Origin: a virus
Reading direction: 5' to 3' (one strand)
DNA: 40,339 nucleotides
UHGV virus genome: UHGV-0008619
The notes under the pieces were generated by a model. The model ran no database searches. It was not told where the DNA came from and saw nothing but the letters and a program-made list of their open reading frames with translations. The position numbers were made by a program, and so were the translations under genes. This document shows, piece after piece, positions 6,791 through 15,762 of this stretch; the first letter of the stretch is position 1, and each line of letters starts with the position of its first letter.

Positions 6791-7020
6791 TGGATAAGAT
6801 CGGGACAATTCTTCTTAGTCGCCCTGCCATCTGCCGGATGCTGGGCGGAATTAGCAGGGGGACGTTTTATTTATGGCGTAAAAAGTGGGAGGAAAACGGA
6901 ACCCCATTCCCGGCCCCGGTTGATGTATTGGGGACCGGGCGGGGCGTCATGTACCGCTATCAAGAGGTGATGCGGTTCTTTGATAAGATCGGATTAACGC
7001 CAGCCAGAGATAAGACGTAA
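6790..7020 (+). CDS. excisionase-like / AlpA-type HTH DNA-binding protein
   Basis: 76 aa, small basic HTH protein (GGISRGTFYLWRKKWEENGTPFPAPV); convergent with and overlapping 3' end of integrase. Confidence 0.6.
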   Translation: MDKIGTILLSRPAICRMLGGISRGTFYLWRKKWEENGTPFPAPVDVLGTGRGVMYRYQEVMRFFDKIGLTPARDKT

Positions 7021-8174
7021 TCCGCAAATTTATTTAACGCCTCCTTTTGTTCATCAAGATAATCATATTTGTCGTACACCGCCAGTATTCCCCTGAGTGA
7101 ATGGCCTAAGATCTTTTCCGCGATATGTACCGGAACACCTATAGCTGAAAGGTGTGTCCGGCACGTCCTGCGGAGGTCGTGACAGGACCATGATTTACCG
7201 CCCATCCTTTTACGCACGAAGATTGCGGCTACTTTTATCACTGATGCGTTTACTGGCCTGTTACCGCCGTTAATCACTGGCGGGAACACATAATCATACT
7301 CATGGGAGGCTAATACCTCCCTGAGCATTTTTATCGACAAATCTGATAATCCCCGCCTGATTTCACTTCTTGTCTTCGCCACTGCCGCCGGGACGGTCCA
7401 TACCCCGTTATCCAGGTCGAGGTGTTCCCTTCTCATTTTCTGCAACTCCCCCACCCTGCACCCAGTTAGCAATAATAGCCTTAATGCTATCTTGTTTTGA
7501 CGGTAGATCTGCGAATCATCCACCGTTCGCCAGAAATGGCCTATTTCATCGCATGATAAATAACGCTCGCCAACCGCATAATTTTCGCCAACGTCAATAA
7601 CCCTGATATTGTTTATCGCTGTACTGGTCATCAACCCGCGCCGGATAGCGCTGTTCACAACAATCTTCATTCGCTTAAGTATCAGGCCAGCCGTAACCGC
7701 GTGCCCAGCCGCAGTGATCTCGCCGAATATGTCCATCCATTGTTTCGTACTGACATCATCGGCAATATACTCACCGAATTTATCGACAACATGGCGCTTA
7801 AGCGCGCTCCTGACGTCATTATATGCAACCAGCTTAATAACGTTAGGCAGGGATAAATAGTCACTCACAATGGCGCTTATTGTTAATTTGCCACGCTCAA
7901 TATCTATCGCTTGCTTTACTGAAACAGTCGGGTTCTTCCCCTTCGCTAACAGCTCTTTGTATTCTGCCACCGCGTAGCGTGCATCTTTCAATGTCATTCT
8001 GCCGTAATCGCCGATCTTCATCCTCACGGGCTTACCGTTGAACCTGTACCGGAACTGGAAAACAATTTTCCCCTTCGGGCTTATCCTGGCAGACAAGCCA
8101 TCGCGATCTGCTATCTCGTTCGGGCCGTCATACGGCTTGTTTGCTATTGCGCGTAATTTAGTATCCGTCAGCAT
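6960..8174 (-). CDS. int: tyrosine integrase (P4-like)
   Basis: 404 aa; N-terminal arm-binding type region, C-terminal catalytic region with HDLRRT...GH..Y-type residues; strong RBS AAAGAGGTG before ATG 8174. Confidence 0.9.
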   Translation of the reverse strand: MLTDTKLRAIANKPYDGPNEIADRDGLSARISPKGKIVFQFRYRFNGKPVRMKIGDYGRMTLKDARYAVAEYKELLAKGKNPTVSVKQAIDIERGKLTISAIVSDYLSLPNVIKLVAYNDVRSALKRHVVDKFGEYIADDVSTKQWMDIFGEITAAGHAVTAGLILKRMKIVVNSAIRRGLMTSTAINNIRVIDVGENYAVGERYLSCDEIGHFWRTVDDSQIYRQNKIALRLLLLTGCRVGELQKMRREHLDLDNGVWTVPAAVAKTRSEIRRGLSDLSIKMLREVLASHEYDYVFPPVINGGNRPVNASVIKVAAIFVRKRMGGKSWSCHDLRRTCRTHLSAIGVPVHIAEKILGHSLRGILAVYDKYDYLDEQKEALNKFADYVLSLAGVNPILSKNRITS

Positions 8175-8189
8175 TATGACACCTCTTTT

Positions 8190-8211
8190 TTGGTCACGAT
8201 TTGGTACACAA
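8190..8211. repeat. 22-bp direct repeat copy 1 (TTGGTCACGATTTGGTACACAA), candidate integrase arm/att site
   Basis: 21/22 identical to copy at 8431..8452; internally a tandem of TTGGT(C/A)AC half-sites; immediately upstream of int. Confidence 0.5.
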
Positions 8212-8430
8212 TTTTATCTGAACGGATATTAACATCATCGAACGGATTAAAACACATCTGCGGAAGATTGATGTGTAACTTAGTGAATTTAAATGATATT
8301 TTTTATCATCCATCAACCAGTCTGAACGCAACTAAACACTATGAATCGTTACTGTCTGGAATGATTATCACTGTGAATAATCATTTATAAAACAGTGTGT
8401 TGCATTGATTTTGTTTTTGGTTTTGGATAT

Positions 8431-8452
8431 TTGGTCACAATTTGGTACACAA
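8431..8452. repeat. 22-bp direct repeat copy 2 (TTGGTCACAATTTGGTACACAA)
   Basis: Direct repeat of 8190..8211, 241 bp away in same intergenic region. Confidence 0.5.
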
Positions 8453-8479
8453 AAAGAAACGAGGCGTTAGCCTCGTTTC
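8449..8479 (-). terminator. rho-independent terminator after tail fibre gene
   Basis: Hairpin AAACGAGGC-GTTA-GCCTCGTTT followed on - strand by T-run (CTTTTTGTG). Confidence 0.6.
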
Positions 8480-8508
8480 GCGCGGCGATGTTCTTCGCAC
8501 ATCACCTA

Positions 8509-9861
8509 TTATTTTTCGCTTCCGGTCAACTGACTGACAAGCGCTTCAAGTTTTGCGATCCTCTCATCCATTGCGGCAATGTTGTCGCGCAGGCTTGCGT
8601 TCTCCTCTTCCAGTTCGGTGACGCGGTTATCTGTTTCGCGTGCCACCTGGACAAGTAAACCAGTCACCGCCGCATAGTCAACATTGAGGTAACGAGTTTC
8701 CTCGCGTAGCTCGTTGCCGTCAATGGTCGGGCCTTGCAATGCTTTACCGTAATGAGTAAACGATCCTACAGCCTCCGGCAGCGCCTCCATGACCTCCTGA
8801 GCGATAACGCCAGCGTAAGGCAGGCCGTTTTCCTTAAGGGTATAAGTGTACCCGTTCATTTTACGGACGGCTTCAGTTGCATCACCTATAACCTGAATGT
8901 TGTCTTTCAGGTCGCGGTCAGATGATTGGTTGATTGTAGTACAATTTACCACTCCGTTAACAGCTAATAGCACCGTTTCATCACTATTAACCTGACACTG
9001 ATATAGTAGTTTGTGAGTTGTTTCCGTGCCAACTACTAATGTTTTAAATTCGAGAGCTGAAGGTGAGGACTCTGAACCCCACAGCGTTATCGCGCAATCG
9101 TTAGCAGGACTATTTGCTGCCATCACCCTTATTTTTCTTGACCGATCATCAGAGTGGAAATGAGTATTAGTGGTATGCGTTTCTTTTGCATTTAAAACGC
9201 CATCAATAGCAACGTCACCGAATGTGGTAGAATCACCGGATTTTAATTGTTTTACCCATCTCGTTCCTGTTTCTGTGACATAGTTGTAACAATACAGTGA
9301 TTTGGTGGTGTGCCCAACAAAAACGCCTAAGTATGCTTTAATTCCACTACCATTATCACTTGCCTGTGCGATCCAGCCAGTTAAACACCATTCCCCTGAT
9401 GCTATTGAGGGGAAACCTGTCGCTGTATCAAGAATGCGAGTAAAGCCGACATAATTTGACGGATCGCCGGAAATGTTAGGACAATCTCTGTAAGTTTTGC
9501 CAAGACCTATCTTGTCTCCGATATGGTTCTGGCTCCATTCAAGCGCCTCCGATACTGCCGTTTCCTTACTCTGATAGTAGCGCAATGTTTCGGCTACATC
9601 CTGAGCAAGCCCATCAACTGAGATGGAATCAGATAACAGAATACTAAATTTTGTCCCGGCAGGGATGTCAGGATTAGACGATGGCGTTACTGATAATTCA
9701 GTACCGCTCTTGATTTCTGTGATGGTAAAAATCTGAATAGGATCGCTAACGGCAATGAGCGTGCACCCTTCCCGGATGAGCGAAAGCGGCGCGGTGAAGT
9801 TTGTCCCTGTGCCTGTAACAGTGTTACCGCTAATGGCTATTGTTCCTGCTGTATAAATCAT
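8509..9861 (-). CDS. tail fibre/tailspike with C-terminal intramolecular chaperone (peptidase S74-like) domain
   Basis: 450 aa; C-terminal region DRDLKDNIQVIGDATEAVRKMNGYTYTLKENG...YLNVDYAAVTGLLVQVARE plus terminal coiled coil typical of self-cleaving fibre chaperone. Confidence 0.8.
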   Translation of the reverse strand: MIYTAGTIAISGNTVTGTGTNFTAPLSLIREGCTLIAVSDPIQIFTITEIKSGTELSVTPSSNPDIPAGTKFSILLSDSISVDGLAQDVAETLRYYQSKETAVSEALEWSQNHIGDKIGLGKTYRDCPNISGDPSNYVGFTRILDTATGFPSIASGEWCLTGWIAQASDNGSGIKAYLGVFVGHTTKSLYCYNYVTETGTRWVKQLKSGDSTTFGDVAIDGVLNAKETHTTNTHFHSDDRSRKIRVMAANSPANDCAITLWGSESSPSALEFKTLVVGTETTHKLLYQCQVNSDETVLLAVNGVVNCTTINQSSDRDLKDNIQVIGDATEAVRKMNGYTYTLKENGLPYAGVIAQEVMEALPEAVGSFTHYGKALQGPTIDGNELREETRYLNVDYAAVTGLLVQVARETDNRVTELEEENASLRDNIAAMDERIAKLEALVSQLTGSEK

Positions 9862-9942
9862 CTCAATGACTCCATAACGTAAACCTACGTGTTAATTCTA
9901 CCATTTTTGTGACAGTGCGCACACTTTTAGTTTACCTATTGT

Positions 9943-9948
9943 ATAATA
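9943..9948 (+). promoter_or_regulatory. candidate -10 element (TATAAT) for lipoprotein operon
   Basis: Perfect TATAAT about 50 nt upstream of ATG 9999, preceded by TG; no good -35. Confidence 0.25.
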
Positions 9949-9998
9949 ATTTAATCAACAGAAAGGCTCATTACAAAACGTAGTTACCGAGGTGTGAT

Positions 9999-10220
9999 AT
10001 GAGAATGTTTTGTGTTATTGCGGTTGCTATATTGATGCTTTCCGGGTGCGCTGAAGTTGTAAGACATGATGGATACTGCGCAACTAGTGCTTATGGTGTC
10101 TGCTATGAAAGATGGGTTAACGGGGTTAAGATTCCATCTGGTGAGATCTGCCGCGTTTATGATGGCACTGATGGCCATAGTGGGAAAACAAAAGATTGCG
10201 GTAGTAAGGAGTGGTTTTGA
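9999..10220 (+). CDS. small lipoprotein, candidate Cor/Llp-like superinfection-exclusion protein
   Basis: 73 aa; signal peptide with lipobox LSGC (MRMFCVIAVAILMLSGC); opposite strand to flanking tail genes. Confidence 0.6.
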   Translation: MRMFCVIAVAILMLSGCAEVVRHDGYCATSAYGVCYERWVNGVKIPSGEICRVYDGTDGHSGKTKDCGSKEWF

Positions 10221-11155
10221 TGGGTGCTGGTATTTATATTGCGCTACCAGATGGCAGGCCAGCTATGGAGATAACGAGCGGATTAAGAGCTTTCTCCCAT
10301 TCGGGCGATTTTAATGTTAGCTCAGCTGGATTTTCAAAAAGTTTTGGTATAACTGATTTAACTGGAGGGGATAAGTTTTTAATCCCAAAAGCTGGCGCTT
10401 ACGCTTTTGAGCTTGATAGGGGCGTAGAGACTTATTATATTTCTGGTTTTAGCGCTTCTGGTGGCACAGCCACAATATCAATAGGTGGCGAGAACGCTTA
10501 TTCCGACAGGATCACTTCGTTTAGTGGTAGTGTTTTTGAGATAGCAAGAGCTTCAAGTGGTCAGGGCATTTTTGTTGCTGATAGCACTGATTTCACGTCT
10601 TTGACCACTAACAGTACACTAATGTCGTGCTTGTTTGTCGCTAATATTAGCTTTCATGGGACTTATACCCTGCCTGTTTTGGGAGTTCCCTTTGGTTGTT
10701 GGAGCAATGACGGCGTATCTGTTGAATTTGACGGTTATAACACATTAATATGCACAAACACCAATACTTCTGATGTTGGCGACACTTACGGTAGTGTTAA
10801 TATGGATCTTGCCATATTTAGTAATTCACCGCCAACCCCCGGCGATGGTGTAACCATTATAAATCCTTACGGGCAATGCGTATTTTCTACATCACAAAGG
10901 CCGCTTGTTGTTAAGGGTTTTGTGAGTTTGACAGATACCTATCAATACATCGGTGATGCGTTTTTTCCTATACTTCGCTGCGGTTTCAACACAAGAGCTA
11001 TTTCTGCATACAAAGAATTGAGATACAAGGGGATTTCAATGTTTAATGGGCATGTTAGAGGTAACACAGGATCAAGAATTGTTAGGTATGAAATAGGTAA
11101 TAAACCGAATTTCTGTATAGGGATGCCACTGCCTTATTTACCACGAATTTACTAG
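10220..11155 (+). CDS. hypothetical Gly/Ser/Thr-rich protein, translationally coupled to lipoprotein
   Basis: ATG 10220 overlaps lipoprotein stop (TGATG); AAGGAG RBS; 311 aa, low charge, beta-rich composition, no signal peptide. Confidence 0.55.
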   Translation: MGAGIYIALPDGRPAMEITSGLRAFSHSGDFNVSSAGFSKSFGITDLTGGDKFLIPKAGAYAFELDRGVETYYISGFSASGGTATISIGGENAYSDRITSFSGSVFEIARASSGQGIFVADSTDFTSLTTNSTLMSCLFVANISFHGTYTLPVLGVPFGCWSNDGVSVEFDGYNTLICTNTNTSDVGDTYGSVNMDLAIFSNSPPTPGDGVTIINPYGQCVFSTSQRPLVVKGFVSLTDTYQYIGDAFFPILRCGFNTRAISAYKELRYKGISMFNGHVRGNTGSRIVRYEIGNKPNFCIGMPLPYLPRIY

Positions 11156-11161
11156 CCAGAA

Positions 11162-11194
11162 TTGGCACCCCAACCATTTGGGATGGGGTGCCAA
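11162..11194. terminator. hairpin at convergent gene junction (candidate bidirectional terminator)
   Basis: Perfect 11-bp inverted repeat TTGGCACCCCA/TGGGGTGCCAA between stops at 11155 and 11198; no clear U-tract. Confidence 0.4.
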
Positions 11195-11197
11195 TAA

Positions 11198-14100
11198 TTA
11201 CCAAACACCAACAATAACTTTACCACCATTAGGAAGATTAACAGTGACACCGTTATTATTCATAACTACCCGTCCGTCGGCACTGCTCATATTGAATGTT
11301 TTTCCGCCCTGAACAACAACACTGCCTCTTACGGTAACGTCATTGAACACAGCCCAGCCATCTTTATTTATCATCCAACCCTGATCGCTGCCGTTCCAGT
11401 TGTGTGACGCTATGTAGTTGCCTATTTTTGCGTTGTCTATTGAACCGTCTTTAATAAACGCTTCTTTCACATACATTGCACCATTGGTGACATAGAAAGG
11501 CGTTGTATATGTGCCGTTCGCGTCAGTCATTAGCACGAAGCGATCAACAAGGAAAATACACTGCGATTGAAAGTTAGTACCGTCTCCAGTCAATCCAAGC
11601 GACATACCTGTAGCGTATTTCATGCCGTTGTTATCGGTGGCTAGCTTGATTGAATATGACGCATTAATGTTACCTTTGAGATCGATTAACGCTTTTGACG
11701 TTGTCTCGACCGCTGTCGCGCTCCCGTTAAAGGTCACTTTCAGTTGTTCAATAGCCTCGGCGCGGGCATGGGTTTCGTCTGCTATTGCCGTATCGATCCT
11801 TGCTATTTCCGCTTTTGTTTCTGTCTGGCTTTTCCTGTACTTCGCTTCAATAACGTTGCTCATCTTACTTTGCGCTATTGAGTTGTTAATGAGTGCAAGT
11901 GAGGCGTTTTGTATGCTTGCTTTTGCCTGATCTATCTTGTCACTGGCTTTACCAGCCTTATCACCAACAATACCAAGCTCCGCACTGATGCCCGATATTG
12001 CCTGGGCGCGAGCGCTTGATTCATCGGCGATGGCTTGATCTAGGCGGTCAACACTGGCGTTAGTGTTATTTTCAAGCGTTGTTAAATCAGCTTTAACCTG
12101 TGTTATTGCGTCGCTTCTTGCTTGCGTTTCATCTGATATTGCTTTATCAAGACGAGAAACGCTCGCATCAGTCTTGCTTTCAAGGTTAGTTATTGAAGCA
12201 TTCACGTCACTAATGGCTTCAGCGCGTGCACTCTCCTCGTTAGCAACTGCGCGTTGCACATGGGAAATCTGGCCTTTAAGATTGTTATCCATCGCATTCA
12301 TTTCTGCCGTGATGGTTTCCAATGATTCCGCAGTCGCTTTTTTCTCTTCAGCGATAACGTTGTCGATGCGGTCAATTTCCGCCCTCGTCTCTGTTTTACC
12401 TTTCTTGTACTGAGCGGTAAGAGTTACGCGGGTGTTAGTCTGTGCAAGTGAGTTATTAATAAGAGCGAGTGAAGCATTTTGTAGTCTTGCTTTTGTCTGC
12501 GCCAGTTCGCTGTTAGTTTTTTCGCTAGACACCTCTAATGAGTCTATTCTTACCTTATGCTGTCCTATGTTATCGGCGTTTCCCTGAGCTTTTTTATAAA
12601 GCTCTTCTGTTTCTTTTTTAAGCGTGTTGGTGTCAGATCTTAAATCGCCAGTTATATTGGCGAGATTATTAGTCGCTGTTTTTAGGTCATTCGTAGCTCT
12701 TTCGATAAGATCGGTGCGGTCACCAAGATCTTTGATGCCGCCAATCATTTCTTTAAACTGTTCTGAATTCATCACGTCTTTGGTGACGTAATCGCTGATT
12801 TCATCAAAGTTTTCAGTCGGTTTGCCTGATGCTTCAACGAAGTCTGACACACCAAAGGCATTACGCGTGCGCACATAAACGTAATAAGTGTGGCCCGTGT
12901 TCATGCCGCCAAAAGTCCACTGATACCCGCGCCCGGTAAACTGAGCTAATGTGGTTACTTTTGATGGGTCTGTGATCTGGTTTTCACCTGAGTAATAAAA
13001 CTCGTATGCCGTATCAGTGGTCAGGGTTGTTTTGCTGATCGGATATACTGTTGCCTGGAAAACGCCGGGAACCCAATTAACGCCTATTGGGGCCGCTGGC
13101 GCACCAATAATCAGGTCCACAATACTTTCCGCACCCTTCATGCCAGTGTCATTACGCCCGCGAATACCAAGCGTGTAGCTGCCAGCATCAAGGCCATAAA
13201 AATCATAGCGGTAATTCGTTGTTTCATAAGCTGCCACCACGCGGCCTTCTGCGTTATATACGCGGATCTCAAAGGTCAGGCGATGCGTTGTTGTCTGCGT
13301 TTCCCATGTAGCTCTACATTGAACAGTTTCAGAACCAACATTTAACACCTTCAGGTTTTCAATGTTCGGCACGCGGAAGTGATTAAGCGTGTCGTTGTTT
13401 ATCTCAAAGATTGCGCCTTCATCAACTACAGCCTGTTTATGCGGATCGTGCTGTGCAGCCTCGATGGTGTACACGCTGTTATTTTCGGTTTCTGCTACGC
13501 TGGTGATTCGACACAGAACCGGTTTTGCAGATTCAGTCGACACGGCAAACACGGTTCCGTTACGAATCCATGCGGGCGCTGCCGCAAGGGTAATATTGTT
13601 TCCGTCAACTCCAGTGATCTGATGTTTTTTAAACTTGCCGTCGCTGTCCAGTAAGCTGATAGTGTCACCAGCCGCCACCAGGTCAGAATCAACCTTGTCT
13701 ACAGTTATCACTTTCCCATTATTCGCCACGATGCGACCGCCTAAACGAGCGCCAGCGCGGTTATTGTCGAGTATCTCGATAATATCACCTGGGGTGAAGT
13801 GAATTGCGTCACGGGCCATTTTAAACGTGAATTTTGAGGGTTCGCGTTTTGCTGTTTCTATCAGCCATTTGCCAGCGCGGTACGCCTGCCCGCGTGACGT
13901 GCAACCGAAAGCCTCCAACGTGGTTTCGTTGTAACCATCGCGGGCGATCAGTTCATCATCTGCTACGTATTCTTTTGATTGTTCCCAACCGTTTTCCGGG
14001 TCAGTCCATGACACGATCACGGCGTTGTAAGATTCTGCGCGGGCGATACTTGAACGAGTAAACGCGCCATCAACGACGTTTGCATTTGTGATGGTGGCAA

Positions 14101-15217
14101 TTGGATCCTGCGGTGCATCAATCATCACCGTAAGGCGCTGCCCGTCCCATAACGCGATTCCACGGAACATACCTGCAATGTTATCCAGCAAGTCGCGGGC
14201 GCTCATTTGCTCCGTGATGTAAGCATTAAGCGTCATGCGAGGTTCAAAACCGCCGTATCCGTCGCTAACCAACTGGTCGCAGTATTGAGAAAGCGTATAT
14301 AATGCGCCGTCATCAACGTCAATGTAACCAGCGTGGCGGGCAAGCCCGAAGCGTTCATTTTTAACCAGATACCGGAAAAGCCAGGCAGGGTTGTTGGTGT
14401 ACGCTTTTTTAAATCCACCCAGCCATAAACCTGAATACGTGCGCGTTTCAGGGTTGTAGTTGTCCGGCACATCAACAATCAGTCCGCGCAGATGATAAGT
14501 GCGGGCAGGAGTATCAGTATACTGGTCATGGTCAATTACCGCGCCAGCCACAGCGGTATGAGGGTAAGACAGGTTATCGTCGATTATTTCGCTGTAGCTA
14601 CTCCACCGCGTATCATTACGAAGAAGATCACTTTTGCTGTCTGGTGTTACGCGACGAACGCGAATATCAAACGGCTTTTCATCCGGCGCGTTGATAATGT
14701 GAGCTTCCAAGTATTCACCGCTCTGTTTACCAGGCCCGATGGTAATATCCTTAACCAGCGTCCACGTCGATGATGATGATGGCTTAACATCAACCATTAA
14801 CATAACTGACGTGTTGTATTGATTGCCCTTATCATCTGACTGAACAAGAGCGTCAACGCCAACATTTAATCTAACGCGGGTGACGTTTGGATCTGAAACG
14901 GTCCTGATTATTGGCGTATCGCGTTTTACCTGTGTGTTAACAATAACAGTTGATTCAATGGCGTTAAAACCGTTAATCGGTGATTGGTCAGCCGTGCCAT
15001 TGCGCCACGCTATACTTACCCCAGGGATTGATGTATTCCCGTTGGCGTCAGTAACAGGCGTGTCATTAAGCATCACATCATTTAATGGCGCTTTCTGGTT
15101 TACCGGACCGTATATCGGCCCCTCGCTGAGAATGTCTAAAACACGATAAAACTGTTTATGATACAGGTTATCGTTTAGCAATGTTGGTGTTTTGGCTTTG
15201 CCGCCGCCGCTACTCAT
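11198..15217 (-). CDS. J: central tail fibre / host specificity protein J homologue
   Basis: Lambda J-like blocks (LWSSYSEIID, NYNPETRTYSGLW, AFGCTSRGQAYRAG, YYVYVRTRN); ATG 15217 with AGGAG RBS; contains expanded coiled-coil segment. Confidence 0.9.
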   Translation of the reverse strand: MSSGGGKAKTPTLLNDNLYHKQFYRVLDILSEGPIYGPVNQKAPLNDVMLNDTPVTDANGNTSIPGVSIAWRNGTADQSPINGFNAIESTVIVNTQVKRDTPIIRTVSDPNVTRVRLNVGVDALVQSDDKGNQYNTSVMLMVDVKPSSSSTWTLVKDITIGPGKQSGEYLEAHIINAPDEKPFDIRVRRVTPDSKSDLLRNDTRWSSYSEIIDDNLSYPHTAVAGAVIDHDQYTDTPARTYHLRGLIVDVPDNYNPETRTYSGLWLGGFKKAYTNNPAWLFRYLVKNERFGLARHAGYIDVDDGALYTLSQYCDQLVSDGYGGFEPRMTLNAYITEQMSARDLLDNIAGMFRGIALWDGQRLTVMIDAPQDPIATITNANVVDGAFTRSSIARAESYNAVIVSWTDPENGWEQSKEYVADDELIARDGYNETTLEAFGCTSRGQAYRAGKWLIETAKREPSKFTFKMARDAIHFTPGDIIEILDNNRAGARLGGRIVANNGKVITVDKVDSDLVAAGDTISLLDSDGKFKKHQITGVDGNNITLAAAPAWIRNGTVFAVSTESAKPVLCRITSVAETENNSVYTIEAAQHDPHKQAVVDEGAIFEINNDTLNHFRVPNIENLKVLNVGSETVQCRATWETQTTTHRLTFEIRVYNAEGRVVAAYETTNYRYDFYGLDAGSYTLGIRGRNDTGMKGAESIVDLIIGAPAAPIGVNWVPGVFQATVYPISKTTLTTDTAYEFYYSGENQITDPSKVTTLAQFTGRGYQWTFGGMNTGHTYYVYVRTRNAFGVSDFVEASGKPTENFDEISDYVTKDVMNSEQFKEMIGGIKDLGDRTDLIERATNDLKTATNNLANITGDLRSDTNTLKKETEELYKKAQGNADNIGQHKVRIDSLEVSSEKTNSELAQTKARLQNASLALINNSLAQTNTRVTLTAQYKKGKTETRAEIDRIDNVIAEEKKATAESLETITAEMNAMDNNLKGQISHVQRAVANEESARAEAISDVNASITNLESKTDASVSRLDKAISDETQARSDAITQVKADLTTLENNTNASVDRLDQAIADESSARAQAISGISAELGIVGDKAGKASDKIDQAKASIQNASLALINNSIAQSKMSNVIEAKYRKSQTETKAEIARIDTAIADETHARAEAIEQLKVTFNGSATAVETTSKALIDLKGNINASYSIKLATDNNGMKYATGMSLGLTGDGTNFQSQCIFLVDRFVLMTDANGTYTTPFYVTNGAMYVKEAFIKDGSIDNAKIGNYIASHNWNGSDQGWMINKDGWAVFNDVTVRGSVVVQGGKTFNMSSADGRVVMNNNGVTVNLPNGGKVIVGVW

Positions 15218-15231
15218 GGCTTTTTCTCCTG

Positions 15232-15762
15232 TCAACTTACAACGTCTAAGGCGTCTTTGTTATTACTTGTGTCTATGCCTAACGATCCGACGTTTGAACC
15301 TATTTTCATTTCGCCCAATAGGATTGGCACTGGTCTACCCTGGCCTACCTTGTTTTCAACGCTGGTGTAGGTGTTGTTCGTTATGGTGTTATCTTGTGCG
15401 CTTTCTGCTGATGTTTTTACCTTCATGTTGCGGGACATAAAGAGGGAGAACGCAACGCTAACCACTGAAACACCAATCAAGATCCAGCCTACAACACCAA
15501 TCCCAGCAATACCGCCTTCAACTACTGGTGCAACAATGACGGTAGTCCCATCCGGGTATTTACTATTAACCGCTGCGGGCGCGGTCTTTTCGTCATAATC
15601 TTTTCCGGCAATTCGTAAGCGCAATGGGGTGCTTAAAAACGCCTTCTTGAACTCATAATTCTGCGCAACCAATAAGCTAAGCCCCTGCGCTGGCGTTTCA
15701 ACGTTTAAACACACCTTGCCGTAATATCTTCGAAGATTGCCCGTAAATCTAAATTTGAGCAT
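15232..15762 (-). CDS. tail assembly protein I-like
   Basis: 176 aa; lambda I-like segments (IVAPVVEGG, PILLGEMKIGS); position between K and J. Confidence 0.7.
   Translation of the reverse strand: MLKFRFTGNLRRYYGKVCLNVETPAQGLSLLVAQNYEFKKAFLSTPLRLRIAGKDYDEKTAPAAVNSKYPDGTTVIVAPVVEGGIAGIGVVGWILIGVSVVSVAFSLFMSRNMKVKTSAESAQDNTITNNTYTSVENKVGQGRPVPILLGEMKIGSNVGSLGIDTSNNKDALDVVS

Follow-up and report, generated by a model that had tools for sequence, protein, structure and literature searches.

A two-gene cassette predicted to encode a receptor-binding protein and a superinfection-exclusion lipoprotein downstream of J in a temperate mEpimmI-group siphovirus

The window analyzed here is a whole stretch of viral DNA 40,339 nucleotides in length (UHGV virus genome UHGV-0008619). 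Between its J and tail fibre genes lies a two-gene unit that runs against its neighbours, with both cassette genes on the plus strand and J and the tail fibre on the minus strand. A preliminary description had proposed this opposite-strand arrangement, and the strands and order of the open reading frames (ORFs) bear it out. The features of the locus are as follows:

8509-9861, minus strand: lateral tail fibre of 450 aa with a C-terminal S74 chaperone domain (PF13884 and tail-fibre PHROGs)
9942-9947, plus strand: TATAAT, a perfect hexamer 51 nt upstream of the lipoprotein start; candidate -10 element
9989-9994, plus strand: GAGGTG, a Shine-Dalgarno-like sequence for the lipoprotein gene; a ribosome-binding site (RBS) is annotated at the equivalent mEp021 site
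9999-10220, plus strand: gene for the 73-aa lipoprotein precursor
9999-10046, within that gene: signal peptide
10047-10049, within that gene: lipid-modified Cys17, from which the mature form of about 57 aa starts
10206-10211, plus strand: AAGGAG, Shine-Dalgarno sequence of the receptor-binding protein (RBP) gene, 8 nt upstream of the ATG at 10220
10220-11155, plus strand: gene for the 311-aa protein
11161-11196, strandless: GC-rich hairpin with a 12-bp perfect stem, ATTGGCACCCCA / TGGGGTGCCAAT
11198-15235, minus strand: J, the central tail fibre or tip attachment protein, with Pfam J domains; its start is the TTG at 15235 in the ORF list, and an ATG-started gene call (contig L003) is six codons shorter

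The two cassette genes are joined very tightly. The TGA stop codon of the lipoprotein gene (10218-10220) and the ATG start codon of the next gene (10220-10222) have one base in common in the sequence TGATG, an overlap that the preliminary description had also noted. A GTG at 10211 would give a protein of 314 aa, but the ATG at 10220 is the real start, because every homologue begins with MGxGIY. When the junctions of six phages were compared, the AAGGAG sequence was found to fall within the codons for the lipoprotein's C-terminal S-K-E-W, and the mEp021 record annotates an RBS at this RBP Shine-Dalgarno. At its other end, the RBP gene is convergent with J, and 42 nt separate the two stop codons.

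The space between the 311-aa stop codon (11153-11155) and that of J (11198-11200) is occupied by the hairpin, which has a folding energy of -25.4 kcal/mol (z = -4.4), with none of 200 shuffles folding as well. An 11-bp hairpin closing the unit against the J stop had been noted before; the hairpin is indeed present, but its stem is 12 bp and it sits just beyond 11155, where the unit had been taken to end. In mEp021, Oekolampad, TheodorHerzl, BEK1-1 and Shfl1 this position has a hairpin too, and the one in mEp021 is annotated as a terminator. The window hairpin carries no clear U-tract and a consensus terminator scan found no terminator; its position is that expected of a bidirectional terminator.

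Upstream of the cassette, which is transcribed divergently from the lateral tail fibre, the TATAAT hexamer is kept in mEp021 and in the E. coli GF66.2 prophage. It has no acceptable -35 partner and was not called by a consensus promoter scan, which found no σ70 site in the 9862-9998 intergenic region; the three matches the scan did return were all inside coding sequence and were no more than expected by chance. Tentatively, TATAAT might serve as the -10 element of the operon's own promoter. No tRNA genes occur within the window.

Both ORFs are genuine genes rather than chance reading frames, because they have strong Pfam matches (PF24052 at 1.4e-28 for the lipoprotein and DUF6453, PF20051, at 9e-103 for the 311-aa protein) and because the pair recurs in a like arrangement in many phages. 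The lipoprotein and RBP genes are found in unchanged order and tightly coupled in mEp021, BEK1-1, Oekolampad, TheodorHerzl and Shfl1.

The 311-aa protein had been described as a Gly/Ser/Thr-rich, cysteine-containing protein with no signal peptide, and this was verified: Gly, Ser and Thr make up 31.5% of its residues, there are six cysteines, and neither a signal peptide nor a transmembrane stretch is present (maximum 19-residue Kyte-Doolittle hydropathy, 1.23). It had also been called a protein of unknown nature, which no longer holds. An AF2 model (pLDDT 81, pTM 0.83) is nearly all β-strand, and a Foldseek search with it returned a sole significant PDB match, chain C of 9RPT (E 9e-16, probability 1.00), with a TM-score of 0.86 by target length and an rmsd of 2.8 Å. 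The same chain is matched by sequence over residues 1-306 (E 2.8e-45). PDB 9RPT is the structure of the Oekolampad RBP on the extracellular face of LptDE (PMC12685063), and the DUF6453, Rtp44 and Oekolampad-RBP proteins are one family, to which the 311-aa protein belongs. NCBIfam returned nothing for it.

Identity to the RBPs of lytic phages is 62% for TheodorHerzl, 63% for AugustePiccard (bas01_0028) and 33% for Oekolampad, with 100% coverage in each case, and the alignment with the first two, which are also 311 aa long, is gap-free. The closest characterised copy of the cassette is that of mEp021 and mEp515, where identity reaches 81% for the RBP (mEp021 gp80) and 75% for the lipoprotein. 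Earlier work with the BASEL collection showed that Bas01, Bas14 and Bas18 depend on LptD (PMC8594841), and identity above 30% over more than 99% coverage has since been used to delimit the LptD-associated RBP family (bioRxiv 10.64898/2026.04.02.716166). Against the RBPs of TheodorHerzl, AugustePiccard and Oekolampad, all of them LptD-dependent, the window protein lies above both values. E. coli mutated in loops of lptD, for example Δ(Y658-Y678)::Y, D352Y and Y671N, resists Bas01, Bas14 and Bas18. Two database labels for this family are misleading and can now be corrected. The PHROG label for phrog_1265, "membrane protein / moron", was rejected given the lack of any hydrophobic stretch and the nearly all-β model, and the "FlgL-like" (flagellar hook-associated FlgL) note on mEp021 gp80 was rejected for want of Pfam or PDB support.

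The neighbouring J gene provides further evidence. The last ~20 residues of J (encoded at about 11201-11260) end in ...NNNGVTVNLPNGGKVIVGVW, a motif present in nine of the ten J proteins examined that have a DUF6453 gene next to them, PY54 being the exception. In mEp013 and MagusPhagus, which have no RBP gene, the motif is replaced by a longer, unrelated C-terminus. The J C-terminus is thus a probable docking site for the RBP. Moreover, the DUF6453 gene directly follows J on the same strand, with no lipoprotein gene in between, in three other phages: NJR15 of Klebsiella, PY54 of Yersinia and phiES15 of Cronobacter. In GenBank, mEp021 gp80 is labelled a "virion structural protein", and by our count the structurally named coding sequences of that record sum to 16, the number of proteins reported by mass spectrometry. 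A search of the supplements of the mEp paper for gp80, AXN54199 and "virion structural protein" found none of these, so the presence of gp80 in the virion rests on the GenBank label and the coding-sequence count. Taken together, homology to a solved RBP, the position in the J operon elsewhere and the label of mEp021 gp80 make the 311-aa protein very probably a virion component. From its sequence and predicted fold, it is most likely the RBP of the central tail tip, with LptD(E) as its predicted receptor.

The 73-aa product had been reported to possess a signal peptide and an LSGC lipobox, and both were read again in the sequence, where the motif was matched by eye. The N-terminus, MRMFCVIAVAILMLSG ahead of the cysteine, comprises one basic residue, a hydrophobic core and the lipobox L-S-G-C, and the Ala after Cys17 (position +2) is an outer-membrane sorting signal. 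The protein falls in the Rtp45 / Lpp021 family (PF24052). Its PDB match is chain D of 9RPS (E 5.2e-20), with 30 of 56 mature residues identical; this chain is Rtp45, solved while bound to the periplasmic face of LptDE (PMC12685063). The same work found that AF3 mispredicts both Rtp45 and the Rtp45-LptDE complex (PMC12685063). The Cys30-Cys38 disulfide pair of Rtp45 is kept as C27/C35, and its LptD-pairing strand (residues 30-35, CATQAS) reads CATSAY in the window. A second cysteine pair, C51/C67, occurs in the lipoproteins of the window's prophage subclade; at these positions the Rtp45 group has Asp/Tyr, and the Oekolampad group has Asp/Val or Asp/Ile. NCBIfam gave just one sub-threshold match, to TraV, over residues 1-37, which are mostly signal peptide. 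By homology, then, the lipoprotein is a superinfection-exclusion (SE) factor that is predicted to block the phage's own receptor. The suggestion of receptor blocking, made at the outset, gains support from Rtp45 and from the 75% identity to mEp021 Gp81, whose expression from a plasmid shut out both mEp021 and mEp515 (PMC11893012).

Which receptor would be bound and blocked is less straightforward. Both mEp021 and mEp515 were reported to depend on OmpA, with plating on an ompA knockout down to about 10^2 PFU/mL, and recognition was assigned to J (PMC11893012), an assignment that overlooked gp80. LptD is essential and so lay beyond the reach of the Keio knockouts on which that study relied, and the receptor of the subclade of the window and mEp021 may accordingly be LptD, OmpA or both. 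It is conceivable, if rather unlikely, that the whole subclade (the window, mEp021, mEp515 and a few E. coli prophages, GF66.2 among them) has been retargeted, with OmpA in place of LptD as the protein that the RBP binds and the lipoprotein blocks. The type-A lipoprotein excludes exactly the two phages that need OmpA (PMC11893012), the extra C51/C67 pair belongs to the subclade, and its RBPs are just 62-64% identical to proven LptD binders. However, the gap-free alignment with the Bas01 and Bas14 RBPs means that loop lengths are equal. The eight-stranded barrel of OmpA also has no wide lumen. Such a lumen is required by the solved mechanism, in which the barrel takes in the RBP on its outer side and the lipoprotein hairpin on its periplasmic side, and RBPs far more distant than these, at 33% identity, still bind LptD (PMC12685063). 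Furthermore, phages with dual receptors are documented, the additional one being needed by J or a fibre. Bas01, for instance, uses NupG via J and LptD via the RBP (bioRxiv 10.64898/2026.04.02.716166). The lateral tail fibre of the window and mEp021 gp82 have only their N-terminal ~110 aa in common; as the distal part of gp82 is unrelated, OmpA could be recognised in mEp021 by gp82 or by J. In a weaker version of the idea, there may be a strict dual requirement for OmpA and LptD in a temperate siphovirus. If retargeting were true, the DUF6453 RBP family would gain its first OmpA-specific member, and the lipoprotein would be the first periplasmic one to exclude phages via OmpA, perhaps using the extra disulfide found only in the subclade.

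The preliminary description had instead cast the 311-aa protein as an exclusion partner that acts together with the lipoprotein, i.e., as a non-virion component of a two-protein receptor block. Translational coupling and co-transcription opposite the tail genes would suit such a scheme, as would the "moron / membrane protein" class of phrog_1265 in PHROGs, but it finds no support in a protein that is a full-length homologue of the RBP in 9RPT chain C, and we regard it as very improbable. Lacking a signal peptide or transmembrane segment, the protein cannot reach the envelope from inside; its solved homologue sits on the extracellular face of the receptor, and no lipoprotein accompanies its gene in the J operons of NJR15, PY54 and phiES15. 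In addition, the mEp021 lipoprotein alone is enough for exclusion (PMC11893012), and PADLOC returned zero matches for the lipoprotein and the 311-aa protein alike. There is even less to be said for a factor that assembles the tail or acts as a chaperone to J or the side fibre without binding receptor, as the placement of the gene between J and the fibre gene might suggest, given that a direct structural homologue binds its receptor over an interface of about 1,700 Å2 (PMC12685063) and that variants of the locus track receptor specificity in small coliphages (PMC8594841; bioRxiv 10.64898/2026.04.02.716166).

We consider it likely, then, that the unit is a host-recognition and exclusion cassette of a temperate, mEpimmI-group siphovirus, with an RBP whose receptor is most likely LptD(E). 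The homology, fold, gene anatomy and conserved arrangement of the cassette are established, while for this phage the identity of the receptor, the attachment of the RBP to J and the stage at which the genes are expressed are inferred. The 311-aa RBP would be synthesised in the cytoplasm and join the tail tip by non-covalent docking on the conserved J C-terminus. The predicted contact with the ...NGVTVNLPxGGKVxxGVW tail of J is the conserved N-terminus of the RBP (residues 1-25), which has low pLDDT in the model of the lone protein. The terminal receptor would be a host outer-membrane protein, and homology makes LptD(E), the LPS translocon, the most likely one; the relative of known structure inserts into the lumen of LptD(E). 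The lipoprotein, once exported and given its lipid at Cys17, would end up in the inner leaflet of the outer membrane, and from the periplasm it would bind the RBP's receptor and force a loop conformation unfit for RBP binding. Both the RBP-LptDE and the Rtp45-LptDE structures have been solved for relatives (PMC12685063). Exclusion of this kind could protect infected or lysogenic cells and prevent the loss of progeny phages to cell debris. The two genes would travel and be expressed as one unit, as suggested by their common candidate promoter, the start/stop overlap, the RBP Shine-Dalgarno inside the lipoprotein gene and the hairpin shared with J. What links the two proteins is not cooperation: the lipoprotein prevents the very receptor binding that the RBP performs.

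With the window, an LptD-type RBP and SE module is shown in the mEpimmI group, which is temperate and prevalent in the gut. Lysogens of this group might be immune to a whole class of lytic phages that target LptD, a point of relevance for phage therapy and phage steering.

The same logic is found in several known systems. The preliminary description likened the lipoprotein to the Cor/Llp type, and the likeness holds for function but not for descent. Cor of T1, phi80, N15 and HK022 is likewise a small lipoprotein whose gene lies close to those for host specificity, and it shuts out phages of the same receptor, in this case FhuA-dependent phages. It is not homologous to the window protein, whose sole Cor match (phrog_1119, E 0.004) covers residues 1-33, mostly signal peptide. 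In T5, the central fibre carries at its tip a distinct RBP, pb5 (oad), which is encoded adjacent to Llp. Llp, a small outer-membrane lipoprotein on the periplasmic side, binds the RBP's receptor from inside and prevents RBP binding. The T5 proteins have no sequence or fold relationship to those of the window, their receptor is FhuA, and Llp works by long-range allostery; membership of the Llp family was rejected, no Llp chain having appeared in the PDB search with the lipoprotein. The pb5 and Llp genes are not known to be translationally coupled.

Much closer are the relatives within the family itself, where an RBP and SE locus downstream of gpJ was described for small coliphages of the BASEL phage collection (PMC8594841). 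The Rtp44/Rtp45 locus of RTP and the near-identical one of AugustePiccard (Bas01) have the layout of the window, behind gpJ and on the other strand, with the lipoprotein gene leading, and their RBP is likewise 311 aa. These phages are virulent Drexlerviridae, whereas the window phage is of the temperate mEpimmI type; its lipoprotein has two cysteines more than Rtp45, and its receptor, unlike that of the RTP/Bas01 locus, is predicted from homology. Oekolampad (Bas18), with its RBP (PDB 9RPT/9RPW/9RQI) and SE lipoprotein bas18_0026, has the family, fold and locus architecture of the window, down to a GC-rich hairpin between convergent stop codons. It differs in identity (33% for the RBP and 38% for the lipoprotein, with several indels) and in a 2-nt gap between the genes where the window has a 1-nt overlap. 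The nearest system, gp80/gp81 of mEp021 (Lpp021, the "type-A lipoprotein"), belongs to the same phage group, with tail genes of 85-89% nucleotide identity, and has the same 1-nt overlap, Shine-Dalgarno inside the K-E-W codons, hairpin after the RBP gene and extra cysteine pair. Its J is 1727 aa, against 1345 aa in the window, mostly through repeat number, and its published account takes OmpA as the receptor of J and leaves gp80 undiscussed. A cassette of this type has thus already been described genetically, in BASEL, and structurally, through the Oekolampad RBP and Rtp45 on LptDE, and the window's copy is an ordinary member of it.

The 311-aa product encoded between J (gpJ, the central tail fibre or tip attachment protein) and the lateral tail fibre is probably the receptor-binding protein (RBP) of this phage. 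As the preliminary description held, it forms a two-gene unit with a lipoprotein gene on the strand opposite to both neighbours, and the stop codon of the lipoprotein overlaps the RBP start, one base being common to TGA and ATG in TGATG. The ORF listing and the flanking elements give the following layout.

8509-9861, minus strand: lateral tail fibre, 450 aa
9999-10220, plus strand: lipoprotein, 73 aa
10220-11155, plus strand: RBP, 311 aa
11161-11196, between the convergent RBP and J stops: hairpin with a 12-bp perfect stem (dG -25.4 kcal/mol, z -4.4)
11198-15235, minus strand: J
11201-11260, minus strand: J C-terminal motif, ending ...NGVTVNLPxGGKVxxGVW, common to J proteins with a DUF6453 gene after them

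An AAGGAG lies 8 nt upstream of the RBP ATG, and the ATG at 10220 rather than the GTG at 10211 is the true start, since MGxGIY opens all homologues. The hairpin had been correctly placed against the J stop, but its stem is one pair longer than the 11 bp first counted, and it sits just past the end originally assigned to the unit.

Earlier, the 311-aa protein had been read as an unknown partner acting with the lipoprotein; in fact, it matches a solved RBP along its full length. It belongs to PF20051 ("DUF6453"; Pfam, 9e-103), and a PDB sequence search matched it end to end with chain C of 9RPT, 9RPW and 9RQI (E 2.8e-45), the Oekolampad RBP. Its AlphaFold2 model (pLDDT 81, pTM 0.83) is nearly all beta-strand, and its sole significant hit in the PDB is 9rpt_C (E 9e-16; TM 0.86 by target length). 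Full-length identity is 62% to the RBP of TheodorHerzl (Bas14), 63% to bas01_0028 of AugustePiccard (Bas01) and 33% to the RBP of Oekolampad (Bas18), and all three of these coliphages are LptD-dependent (PMC8594841); bas01_0028 is itself 96% identical to Rtp44, the RBP of phage RTP (PMC12685063). The alignment to the 311-aa lytic-phage RBPs is gap-free, and loop lengths have therefore been kept. The Gly/Ser/Thr-rich, cysteine-containing composition was as described (Gly+Ser+Thr 31.5%, six Cys), and the protein has neither a signal peptide nor a hydrophobic segment. The family also carries other labels, namely [quoted passage not shown] for phrog_1265 in PHROGs and "putative flagellar hook-associated protein FlgL" in the mEp021_80 record; neither label finds support in the solved structure or in the sequence.

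The lipoprotein opens with MRMFCVIAVAILMLSG/CA, in which a short basic start, a hydrophobic core and the lipobox LSGC bear out the proposed signal peptide, and the Ala next to the lipidated Cys is an outer-membrane sorting signal. It falls in PF24052 ("Phage lipoprotein"; Pfam, 1.4e-28) and matches PDB 9RPS chain D (PDB sequence search, E 5.2e-20). This chain is the RTP phage protein Rtp45, whose structure places it on the periplasmic face of LptDE. Identity to Rtp45 extends to 30 of 56 mature residues, and the Rtp45 disulfide Cys30-Cys38 is kept as C27/C35. The exclusion function implied by the original Cor/Llp-type assignment is probably right, but the family is that of Rtp45, and homology to Cor or Llp is rejected. 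The lipoproteins of the window, mEp021 and an E. coli GF66.2 prophage share an extra Cys pair, C51/C67 (codons 10149-10151 and 10197-10199), where Rtp45, BEK1-1 and TheodorHerzl have Asp and Tyr; in Oekolampad and Shfl1 the residues are Asp and Val/Ile. Because both positions change together, they suggest a second disulfide that only the prophage subclade has. The GF66.2 gene (NZ_CP172145.1; L004 7437-7658) also encodes 73 aa, with a few substitutions relative to the window; PGAP leaves it unannotated, as an empty gap upstream of a "DUF6453 family protein".

The lipoprotein-then-RBP order, on the strand opposite J, also occurs in mEp021, BEK1-1, Oekolampad, TheodorHerzl and Shfl1. Among six phages compared at the junction, including the window (10206-10222), four have a 1-nt overlap (TGATG or TAATG) and two a 2-nt gap, while in all six the RBP Shine-Dalgarno is supplied by the conserved C-terminal [KR]-E-W codons of the lipoprotein (AAG GAG TGG). 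Translation initiation, and not protein function alone, may therefore constrain this motif. In the window and the other five phages named, the few bases separating the convergent RBP and J stops hold a GC-rich hairpin, with classical A- and U-tracts in the lytic phages and weak ones in the window; it is absent from the GF66.2 prophage, where both stop codons abut. J is followed directly, on its own strand, by the DUF6453 gene in NJR15 (a Klebsiella Webervirus), PY54 and phiES15; no lipoprotein gene intervenes, and this is where a tail gene would be expected. The NJR15 record leaves this gene unannotated.

Nine of ten J proteins examined with a DUF6453 gene next to them end in ...NG[IV]TVNLPxGG[KR]hhhG[VT][WF], the exception being PY54. 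In mEp013, which uses LamB, and MagusPhagus, together termed LamB-type relatives, the slot holds only an 82-aa lipoprotein, and in place of the J motif stands an unrelated, longer C-terminal domain (about 125-140 aa). The J-fibre slot is an exchangeable recognition and exclusion cassette. The N-terminal 25 residues of the RBP are its most conserved part and have low pLDDT when modelled alone, and the solved RBP is likewise disordered in its tail-proximal part (PMC12685063); we infer that these residues dock on the J tail. Residues roughly 865-1170 of J form a long Ala/Glu/Ser-rich, repeated, coiled-coil-like region of greatly varying length (J has 1144 aa in GF66.2, 1345 in the window and 1727 in mEp021), to which mEp021 J aligns at several offsets.

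The window has 85-89% nucleotide identity to the tail regions of mEp013, mEp021, mEp515 and MagusPhagus, all temperate mEpimmI phages, but the cassette alone only about 75% to mEp021, a drop that fits modular exchange. Three contigs on record carry the exact 311-aa protein; the one examined, assembled by Logan from a public sequencing run, has the same gene arrangement. Copies 87-88% identical in nucleotides lie within two E. coli chromosomes. The mEp021 orthologues are deposited as "virion structural protein" (gp80) and "putative lipoprotein" (gp81), and plasmid-expressed Gp81 (Lpp021) excludes mEp021 and mEp515 (PMC11893012). Mass spectrometry found 16 mEp021 virion proteins (PMC11893012); the morphogenesis cluster of the mEp021 record holds 14 CDS with structural names, gp80 among them, which with two outliers mentioned in that paper make 16. 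By this count, the data are consistent with detection of gp80 in virions, although the supplements of PMC11893012 do not mention it. The 311-aa protein is probably a virion component.

The neighbouring lateral tail fibre is mosaic: its N-terminal ~110 aa are common to all mEp-type fibres (about 82%), and its C-terminal ~210 aa, which include an S74 intramolecular chaperone domain, share 78% identity with the terminal part of the mEp013 fibre (849 aa) but have no relation to mEp021 gp82. Integrase (6960-8174) and fibre genes are contiguous in the window across a gap at 8175-8508, whereas the GF66.2 fibre gene lies against mppA, a chromosomal gene, and the end of the mEp021 record falls at about window 8361; together, these boundaries put the window in an excised or circular configuration, with attP in 8175-8508. 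Near-perfect copies of a 22-bp direct repeat, TTGGTCAC[G/A]ATTTGGTACACAA, lie at about 8190 and about 8431 and may represent integrase binding sites.

OmpA is an 8-stranded barrel without a wide lumen. LptD is favoured as the receptor of the window RBP because the solved mechanism needs such a lumen, because the protein aligns gap-free to proven LptD binders, and because LptD binding persists in family members with identity as low as 33%. However, mEp021 and mEp515 are reported to need OmpA, with plating on an ompA knockout falling to about 10^2 PFU/mL; that study assigned recognition to J, left gp80 out of consideration, and used Keio knockouts (PMC11893012). LptD, being essential, lies beyond the reach of such knockouts. 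One reading is a dual requirement, with J or another fibre recognising OmpA and gp80 recognising LptD, much as Bas01 depends on NupG through J and on LptD through its RBP (bioRxiv 10.64898/2026.04.02.716166). Since the distal part of mEp021 gp82 is unrelated to the window fibre, the OmpA requirement need not extend to the window phage. The other, less likely reading is retargeting of the subclade to OmpA, for which the C51/C67 pair, Asp/Tyr in the Rtp45 group, speaks. This conflict over the mEp021-type receptor is the testable point of interest, the rest of the cassette being of low interest.

With LptD as the favoured receptor, the known mechanism offers a model. The Oekolampad RBP goes deep into the LptD lumen, and Rtp45 from inside forces extracellular loop 4 outward, preventing RBP binding and so causing superinfection exclusion (PMC12685063). 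Here too, the lipoprotein would block receptor binding by the phage's own RBP, and the gene coupling would reflect a matched binder and blocker pair, inherited and expressed as one module. "Bona fide RBP loci", which lie just downstream of gpJ and also encode cognate exclusion proteins, are known in Drexlerviridae, Dhillonvirus, Nonagvirus and Seuratvirus, where variants match the terminal receptor (PMC8594841), and a 2026 preprint places four unrelated RBP families at the locus, for FhuA, BtuB, LptD and YncD (bioRxiv 10.64898/2026.04.02.716166). The cassette type has thus already been described genetically and structurally, and the window copy adds a member in a temperate phage lineage.
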